Source of the DNA: a virus
Strand: one strand, 5' to 3'
IMG/VR virus record: IMGVR_UViG_3300009320_000008
Span: 1 to 64,000 of that record
Length of the DNA: 64,000 nt
Every line of letters begins with the position of its first letter. Position 1 is the stretch's first letter. The notes under the pieces were generated by a model, which was given only the letters and a program-made list of their open reading frames with translations, was not told the DNA's origin and did no database searches. The translations under genes were made by a program, and so were the position numbers. Shown piece by piece: positions 54,166 through 56,100 of this stretch.

Positions 54166-55351
54166 CATAAAAGTTATGTCATACCCATCTTTTCTATTCA
54201 CTTCTCGGTAATTTTTCTAAGTTTCTGAATTAACTGCACTTATTGGGATAAAACACAGTAAGAGGATTGATACAAACACGCTGAACTCCCTACTCCCACG
54301 CCTCTCCCAGATATTAAAAAACTATATCCCAAGGCATTATACAACGGATATAAGGGATATTAACATCCAGCATAATAACACAGGATATATAAGGGAGATG
54401 TCAATCCCTCCAAGATAACGCCCAATCTCGGATACTACATCCTGCTATCCATGCACCTGACCTGATCAAGGAACAACAGATTCCCATTATCAGGAGACAA
54501 TATCCCATACCCTAAGGTGCACTATAACCCCACTCCTTAATCAAGACCACTCTAATCAATCCTCAAAACATGTAGCATACGTCCTCAAATAATGAGGATG
54601 CATAATCCATAAGTCCAGGTAGCATACTACCTCACATGTCAGGTAGACAACAAATCAACTACATCCCTTACCAACATCCACTCTATCCGCAACCAATCCC
54701 CGACAATCAGGTAGTATAAATAACTATTAAGGTCTTTGGTCATAAGGATAGACATCCAATCCCAAGTCCTATCATACGGGGTTAACGACATCCCTACCGC
54801 AGTCCCTAACCGATCAACCTAATAAGATCCACGTCAATCCCCGAATACGACCAATCCCTCTCCCAACTCACTGTCCAGTAAGACCCAGATAACAGCTCCA
54901 CTCTATCCAAAGACCATCAACAATGCCTCCCTAACCATACCTGAAAGCAGATCGTATAGAGCCGGATTCAAGATAGCTAAGGATAACAAAGGCTGGGAGG
55001 TCACTCCCTATATGACAATAACCAAATACCTGCTCCTGACCCCGCTAAAAACCCGATAGTAAGACCTCATCCCTAAAATCACCTTGAATCGATCTGCTTC
55101 CTCAAAACTTTGAAGTATGCCAAAATGGCACACCTGCATATTTTGATGATATCACTTTGTGGCACTTTAAAAGTTTTAATACTCTATTTTGGCACATACC
55201 CCAAAATGGCATAGGCCATTTTAGACTATTAAACTTTTTAACACCGCCAATTTGGCATAGGCCAAAACGGCATAGTAGTTTTAGGGCATACTCTGCTATG
55301 GCTTTTTTATTTCACCCTGTTTTTAAAAGGCTACAGTTCGAATTCAGCCAC

Positions 55352-55387
55352 AAAAAATGCCCTACAGCTTTCGCCATAGGGCATTTT
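55352..55387 (-). terminator. Intrinsic terminator after the 55420-55836 gene
   Basis: AAAATGCCCTATGGC-GAAA-GCTGTAGGGCATTTTTT on the minus strand. Confidence 0.8.
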
Positions 55388-55419
55388 CAGTTTCAGCCTG
55401 TCAGATACAGGCCAGATTT

Positions 55420-55836
55420 TTACAGTTTGCCGATGAAACTGTAACGTTCGTTTTCAAGGCAATTTTCGTCGAGCACGTAAGCCCGTTTCAAAGTAACAGT
55501 ACGATGCCGAATAAAGGCTTTAATTTGCGATGGCCGTCTGAAATCTTTGAAGTGTTTTTTGCATGAGCCTGATTTGCCCATGCAAGCTGAAGCAACTGCC
55601 ATCAATTCTTCAGCCGTAAGCCCGTCTGAAGTGTTAATCAAGGCACGATCTAATGCCGCTGTAATGGGCCTGTTGACTTTCGCCCCGACGCCGTTCAGCC
55701 ATTCTGAGGCTTCTTCAAACGTCTTGAACGATGGCACGTTCTTGACTGCCGTAGCGTAACGACAGTAACGCCCTCTGCGATCATTGCCTTTCTGTCGAAT
55801 TACTTTCACTCTTTTTTTGTTAGCTGCTTTTGACAT
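55420..55836 (-). CDS. Isolated basic putative DNA-binding protein in the GGA/GGT-free island
   Basis: MSKAANKK start; clear paralogy to the C-terminal domain of 51173-51946; own terminator. Confidence 0.75.
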   Translation of the reverse strand: MSKAANKKRVKVIRQKGNDRRGRYCRYATAVKNVPSFKTFEEASEWLNGVGAKVNRPITAALDRALINTSDGLTAEELMAVASACMGKSGSCKKHFKDFRRPSQIKAFIRHRTVTLKRAYVLDENCLENERYSFIGKL

Positions 55837-56100
55837 GTTGCCCTGCCTTTCGCCTCTTTTGAGGCTGCTATGTGTTTCTGCCCAGTACGGGCATTGCTTT
55901 CTTTTATAAGCAATTGTTGTGCCAAACATATAAAAGACTTATCATTTCAGCGTGTTATGAAAGGCAGTTTATGGCAATGTTATGTTAGAATTATGTTATA
56001 CTATTATAGTAAAATGCATAACGTATTGATATACTTATATATAAAAATTCAAGTAGCTACTATTTGTATACAATGTAGCTATACGAAAACGGGCATCCTG

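Follow-up and report, generated by a model that had tools for sequence, protein, structure and literature searches.

The pre-early (first-step-transfer) region of phage T5 reportedly carries no EcoRI sites and so escapes EcoRI, an observation attributed to Davison and Brunel in 1979. In phages that modify their own guanines, the sequence contexts of the transglycosylase DpdA have been measured as GA and GGC in CAjan (PMC7544227) and as GA in iggy (PMC10484667). Modified guanines are attacked by Dag1 and Dag2, glycosylases from marine Vibrio, and cutting of 7-deazaguanine DNA by the host enzyme Dag1 scales with modification density (bioRxiv 10.1101/2025.10.29.685425). The literature on deazaguanine phages that we searched holds no description of modification-free or motif-free regions. 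Here we analyzed the phage genome IMGVR_UViG_3300009320_000008, a record of 80,338 bp whose positions 1-64,000 form the window to which our coordinates refer. The window, which occurs in marine metagenomes (two DNA datasets, low-depth contigs, and no RNA dataset among those listed), contains an island of 782 bp that lacks the word GGW on both strands (GGW denotes GGA or GGT, TCC or ACC on the other strand; GGS denotes GGC or GGG, SCC on the other strand). This trait is conserved in the clade of the phage and co-occurs there with the 7-deazaguanine pathway.

The extent of the island, and of a wider stretch that lacks only one of the two words, is as follows.

55314-56096, both strands: GGW/WCC-free island, 782 bp without GGA, GGT, TCC or ACC.
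55099-56096, both strands: wider GGA/TCC-free stretch, 997 bp; the next-longest such stretch measures 208 bp.

A recount of 55318-56095 gave 0 GGA, 0 TCC, 0 GGT and 0 ACC, together with 15 GGC and 27 GCC. This agrees with a sequence-only reading of the same DNA, which had claimed that the four words are missing from about 780 bp and that all 42 GG or CC runs take the form of GGC or GCC. GGG (4 occurrences) and CCC (9) were found solely within GGGC and GCCC; the island contains 19 GG and 36 CC dinucleotides. The significance of the depletion, on which that reading had staked its case, withstood the recount as well: 39.4 occurrences of GGW/WCC are expected from the island's own base composition and none was seen, whereas the lowest number in 1000 shuffles of the island was 23. 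GGS/SCC was enriched ≈ 2-fold (55 versus 28 expected). In the whole record, the runner-up among GGW/WCC-free gaps measured 132 bp, and the GGA/TCC gap was the most extreme of all 2-4-mers in the window (log10 P about -15). Motif density is high in the flanks of the island, yet inside the range of the genome. The island is real, and it is unique within the genome.

We compared the island with that of the closest relative, locus L001 (TerL 87% identical), in which both the promoter elements and the gene recur within a GGW-free island of 1114 bp. Between promoter and island gene, L001 carries an additional gene of 78 amino acids (aa) that is GGW-free too. In the alignment of the two islands, 200 of 772 positions (26%) differ, and none of these changes creates GGW/WCC. 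In 5000 simulations with the same number and kind of changes placed at random, 28 GGW/WCC were created on average, and never fewer than 14. For the island gene, the ratio of non-synonymous to synonymous change (dN/dS) was 0.10 at a dS of 1.13, which puts synonymous sites near saturation. Selection against GGW is ongoing, and 55420-55836 is a real gene. A compositional accident, whether through recent uptake of foreign DNA, through mutation (deaminase hypermutation, for example) or through faulty assembly, would account for the oligonucleotide usage of the island, which is rich in GGC/GCC and unlike that of the rest of the genome. It could also be read into the Neisseria DNA-uptake word GCCGTCTGAA, present as one exact copy at 55531-55540 inside the island gene and as a near-copy at 55628, an occurrence that is probably due to chance given the GCC-rich composition. 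The absence of GGW-creating changes among 200, together with 0 occurrences versus 39.4 expected, excludes this explanation, to which we assign a vanishingly small probability. The rule survives 26% divergence and saturated synonymous change, it is obeyed by the independently inserted 78-aa gene of L001, and about 20 distant relatives, recovered from different metagenomes and unrelated in their island sequences, conform to it. Moreover, the island gene has a paralogue in the same genome, and the island has no DNA match in the phage collection.

The island is one complete minus-strand transcription unit with promoter and upstream boxes, leader, a 138-aa gene and terminator. It is composed of the following elements, to which we add the boxes that adjoin it.

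55930-56095, no strand assigned: AT-rich upstream region with TTATGGCA/TTATGTTA boxes, about 170 bp, within the island and upstream of the promoter; the TTATGGCA boxes are at 55960-56000.
55909-55924, minus strand: sigma54-type promoter TGGCACaacaaTTGCT (-24 GG / -12 GC), about 75 nt upstream of the ATG.
55840-55849, minus strand: sequence AAGGCAGGGC, resembling a ribosome-binding site (RBS), located 3 nt ahead of the ATG, where the genome usually has AGGAGG.
55420-55836, minus strand: island gene, 138 aa, predicted to be all-helical, with close homologues only.
55350-55384, minus strand: intrinsic terminator, stem ATGCCCTA/TAGGGCAT followed by a T-run, as read from the sequence; kept in L001.
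55118-55260, no strand assigned: six TGGCA/TGCCA boxes just downstream of the gene, outside the GGW-free gap and inside the GGA/TCC-free stretch.

Gene, terminator and upstream region thus all fall inside 55314-56096, and the RBS departs from AAGGAGG, both as the sequence-only reading had it. The RBS position of L001 carries AAAGGGGGC, and its upstream region contains three TTATGGCA boxes. Within the island gene, the codon contexts follow the rule throughout: Gly is always encoded by GGC, or by GGG followed by C or G; Pro codons are always preceded by G; and Trp codons are followed by C. The six TGGCA/TGCCA boxes within 250 bp are the genome-wide maximum, versus an overall rate of 2.45 per kb. 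An Rfam search of 52500-57500 gave no meaningful match. The promoter sequence TGGCAC-N5-TTGCT at 55909-55924(-) is the sole exact match in the window, which by count alone is not above chance; at the homologous place, L001 has the same sigma54 elements with a different spacer. Sigma54 promoters require an activator, an AAA+ enhancer-binding protein. A search for the sigma54-activator family PF00158 found none encoded by the phage, its sole match being the clamp loader, below the cut-off. The proposal that host RNA polymerase reads this gene first after injection therefore received no support, the promoter being of the sigma54 type and its activator not encoded by the phage. GG-free relatives cannot carry a promoter of this type, so that it is specific to this lineage and does not explain why the island exists.

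Among 80 loci whose terminase is related (48-87% identity), 22 have a stretch of 375-1667 bp without GGW, located 0.7-2.7 kb upstream of TerL. In the island-bearing loci other than L001, GG/CC is banned altogether, with no GGW and 0-4 GGS versus 6-57 expected. The island genes of these relatives encode proteins of 97-180 aa without Gly, Pro or Trp, and upstream of these genes are purine leaders without GG (AAAGAGAGA, for example), versus AGGAGG elsewhere in the same genomes. The banned words therefore differ by lineage: GGW here and in L001, GG in most relatives, and GG+GAT+GAG in L061. The second and third banned words exist in that one lineage (L061:3680-4494, genome G009), whose island contains 3 GAT/ATC versus 30 expected and 2 GAG/CTC versus 29 expected. 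The rule is relaxed in a few relatives: the island of L065 has two sites, and in L079 and L011 homologous genes lie in DNA containing some or many GG. Lineages with and without the island are interspersed on the TerL tree, which argues against a single event of shared ancestry as the source of the association. Several contigs end inside islands, at a frequency not above chance. At L051:1-428, the GG-free end of the contig is made up of tandem repeats in which CAGCA/ACA words abound, and contains no ordinary gene. Searches of cultured phages with the DNA of the island region and with the TerL protein returned no match.

The genome encodes a DpdA-like enzyme and a preQ0 pathway, as the sequence-only reading had supposed.

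21496-22542, minus strand: DpdA-like DNA guanine transglycosylase, the presumed modification writer (phrog_887, 7.8e-46).
23387-31807, minus strand: preQ0/7-deazaguanine pathway genes (QueC-like, Gat-QueC, SDR, FolE, QueE and QueD), among them the next five.
23387-24058, minus strand: QueC-like.
24954-26567, minus strand: Gat-QueC.
28456-29034, minus strand: FolE.
29783-31390, minus strand: QueE, 535 aa.
31403-31807, minus strand: QueD.

By tblastn, 21496-22542 is 33-36% identical to genes annotated as DpdA or 'queuine tRNA-ribosyltransferase' in 246 phage records (cultured phages). DpdA was recovered solely via PHROGs and tblastn; a search of the genome with the Pfam TGT family (PF01702) gave no match. 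Within the pathway cluster, the open reading frame (ORF) 26768-27796 has no PHROG match. The DpdA of this lineage, which is also present in L113, has 348 aa, of which about 90 C-terminal residues are unmatched in the DpdA of relatives (275-307 aa); this longer form belongs to the lineage that bans GGW instead of GG. The QueE match of ORF 29783-31390(-) is limited to residues 350-529, and HNH-endonuclease-like matches occur at residues 180-298. Similarly, the clamp-loader ORF 13424-15517(-), of 697 aa, matches only over its N-terminal 106 residues. These matches suggest that inteins or endonuclease insertions interrupt the QueE and clamp-loader ORFs.

All seven assessable clade genomes with DpdA (G000, G005, G006, G007, G008, G009 and G014) possess the island. 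In the six that were scanned as a whole (G000, G005, G006, G007, G008 and G014), it stands out above every other stretch of the genome (log10 P about -15 to -38); in G009 it was found in the locus. G001, which is complete, and G002 lack DpdA, FolE, QueC, QueD and QueE, and in them we detected neither an island nor a homologue of the island gene, so that the dpdA-less relatives do not share the trait. G003, G004 and G010 were left out of this correlation, the relevant part being off the contig. Dinucleotide odds ratios do not distinguish DpdA-positive from DpdA-negative genomes. A different kind of compositional island occurs in two other DpdA phages, as AAA/TTT-free stretches of 520-566 bp (G008 51191-51711, locus L237, and G018 13561-14127, locus L226; log10 P -19 and -11, respectively).

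What reads the banned word? Every position on both strands is constrained, despite the loss of three amino acids and of the Shine-Dalgarno sequence, which indicates that a single occurrence of the word harms the unit. The constraint runs along both strands, from upstream boxes to terminator, so that what is read must be double-stranded DNA, not RNA or protein. The banned words start with G, are 2-3 nt long and vary between lineages, all of which are properties of the measured DpdA motifs (PMC7544227, PMC10484667). This resemblance and the co-occurrence with the pathway point to guanine modification by the phage itself as the most likely reader. We infer that GGW is the context of the 7-deazaguanine modification in this phage and that the unit is kept unmodified, a proposition about as likely to be right as wrong. 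DpdA-dependent modification would then exchange guanine at GGW here, and at all GG in most relatives, and the island unit would remain chemically ordinary DNA within an otherwise modified genome. The benefit would be that the unit keeps working regardless of events at modified sites. Two purposes, which we consider about equally likely, can be envisaged. The unit might stay intact and transcribable while host enzymes that attack 7-deazaguanine, such as Dag-type glycosylases, cut the remaining genome. Alternatively, host RNA polymerase and regulators might use the unit in any modification state, such that the small, weakly helix-turn-helix-like protein could be made from incoming modified DNA.

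Several observations weigh against the proposal that the island escapes the phage's own modification. The pathway-negative side of the correlation is thin, with only two assessable clade genomes. Seven near-complete DpdA phages of other clades, whose DpdA is equally related, have no di- or trinucleotide-free island, and CAjan and iggy, for which the motifs are known, have no motif-free island and no GA/TC-free one. DpdA alone is thus not sufficient, and the trait is clade-specific; the expectation that other dpdA phages would carry motif-free islands held inside the clade and failed outside it. All other genes, the early ones included, are GGW-rich and must be expressed, so that the modification cannot block transcription generally. 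A sigma54 promoter without a phage-encoded activator is odd for a supposedly unconditional gene. Finally, none of the family and fold searches assigned a role to the island protein.

The both-strand avoidance at every position would also suit a cutter of double-stranded DNA or the recognition of a protospacer-adjacent motif (PAM). The reader would then be a short-site host or phage nuclease or nickase, or a CRISPR system, and the island a target-free or PAM-free cassette; it might lie, for instance, at the DNA end that is injected first, from which spacers are acquired preferentially. Type I-F systems and NGG Cas9 use GG/CC as their PAM, and this is exactly the word banned in most relatives. 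A possible packaging site, a repeat-bearing and highly conserved element upstream of the terminase genes, is also located 250-400 bp away from the island. However, only the GG-free relatives are free of GG/CC PAMs. In the window island GCC/GGC is allowed and 2-fold enriched, so that a CC/GG PAM is not avoided and the PAM idea fails for this window. The pathway-less relatives have the same packaging module without an island, although unmodified phages should need protection more. Neither GGW nor the GG+GAT+GAG set corresponds to the site of any PAM or nuclease known to us. The genomes were assembled as circular or permuted sequences; the end repeats of the 'DTR' records measure only 55-127 nt and were rejected as true terminal repeats, this length being that of an assembly overlap. 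Altogether, we consider a reader other than the phage's own modification unlikely.

Still less probable, in our judgement, is a DNA-level element that tolerates neither GG nor modified G over about 1 kb, the gene being incidental. A replication origin with its initiator gene, a terminal repeat or a first-step-transfer segment would be candidates. The location in a divergent intergenic region where the cumulative GC skew turns is in keeping with such an element, as is the AT-rich stretch flanked by repeated boxes. Models of island proteins repeatedly match DnaA domain IV and winged-helix domains, but very weakly (Z about 4) and not significantly. An entire coding region exceeds the tens to few hundred bp that an origin or a packaging site needs, and in several lineages the limits of the island follow those of the transcription unit, with the terminator on one side and the upstream boxes on the other. 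In addition, the orientation of the island gene relative to the terminase varies among lineages.

Neither Pfam nor PHROGs contains a family to which the 138-aa island protein belongs. One cluster of close homologues came out of two very large protein searches, all other matches being spurious, and searches of island proteins against PDB sequences, with Foldseek against PDB and BFVD, and VIA-wide revealed no significant family or fold. The protein has no similarity to any known inhibitor. Its structural model is poor, with a predicted local distance difference test score (pLDDT) of 59. One Gly/Pro/Trp-free family of the relatives (15 sequences) was modelled as a six-helix domain (pLDDT 84.5) with weak matches to MarR, PadR, ArsR and DnaA-IV (Z 3.6-4.6), none of them significant. 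The window protein has no demonstrable sequence homology with the Gly/Pro/Trp-free proteins of the relatives; what they share is position, size, an all-helical prediction and a loose K/R-I-K-x-H motif. A paralogue is encoded in the early region of the same genome.

51173-51946, minus strand: early-region protein, 257 aa, whose residues 126-212 are paralogous to the island protein.

The two proteins are 37% identical over 93 residues (E 9e-13), and the paralogous domain is encoded in ordinary, GG-rich DNA. With this domain also present in the early operon, a single function seems to be supplied from both 'marked' and 'clean' DNA.

The island is located within a 3.5-kb divergent gap that separates two gene blocks. 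Up to about 53.2 kb, replication and early genes lie on the minus strand, among them those for DNA polymerase, clamp loader, helicases, primase and a UvsX-like recombinase, and plus-strand packaging and structural genes begin at 56.9 kb. On one side, the island adjoins about 860 bp without a credible ORF (54240-55100), of which the plus strand is C/A-rich, with GC skew down to -0.39 and many ATCC/TCCC words. On the other side, two CTACA-N5-TGTAG palindromes lie just outside the island (56101-56136), and TGTAG/CTACA words continue to about 56400; the palindromes may be activator or operator sites. Further on, 56340-56500, upstream of the terminase genes, is ≈ 95% conserved with L001, versus ≈ 74% around it, and holds CTACATAGTTTGAGGTA twice (56350 and 56382). 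Its conservation and repeats make it a candidate packaging or regulatory site.

In general terms, motif-hypermodifying phages may keep a 'clean' unit that is devoid of the modification word and whose product lets infection start or survive attack. We put forward this generalization tentatively, as somewhat less probable than its negation. If it is true, the banned word of each island would reveal the target motif of DpdA (GGW here, GG or GG+GAT+GAG in relatives), and the modification motifs of uncultured phages would become predictable from sequence, without chemistry. If the banned word is the modification motif, the specificity of DpdA would shift between close lineages, from GG to GGW. There would then also be a previously undescribed cost of DNA hypermodification, in that at least one gene must stay unmodified, and a hint at an unknown step, be it in how modified genomes are expressed or in how they contend with modification-dependent host defences. 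The proteins without Gly, Pro or Trp show in nature how a DNA-level rule overrides protein composition. The modification hypothesis is directly testable.

The phages CAjan and iggy have the same gene set as the phage studied here (DpdA-like transglycosylase, FolE, QueD, QueE and QueC). Their DpdA enzymes act at 2-3-nt, G-initial words that differ between phages, like the banned words of the islands. Unlike in this phage, no motif-free island has been described or found in them, and a GGW or GG motif, such as we infer here from sequence alone, is unreported for DpdA systems. Dag1 and Dag2 provide a known agent that acts at each modified G on either strand, and their marine origin resembles that of the window; however, no tie connects such an enzyme with the host of this phage. 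The likeness to sigma54-dependent promoters consists in the exact TGGCAC-N5-TTGCT, kept in the closest relative, and in the repeated upstream boxes, and the difference in the lack of a phage-encoded enhancer-binding activator. The island resembles a first-step-transfer-type region in that a word common elsewhere in the genome is locally absent. As in T5, avoidance of the target word is local, not genome-wide, over a gene-bearing segment that would function before or despite attack on the remaining DNA. T5 avoids a 6-bp host restriction site, whereas here a word of 2-3 nt is avoided absolutely, at a cost in amino acids and in the Shine-Dalgarno sequence, and the island tracks the phage's own modification genes.

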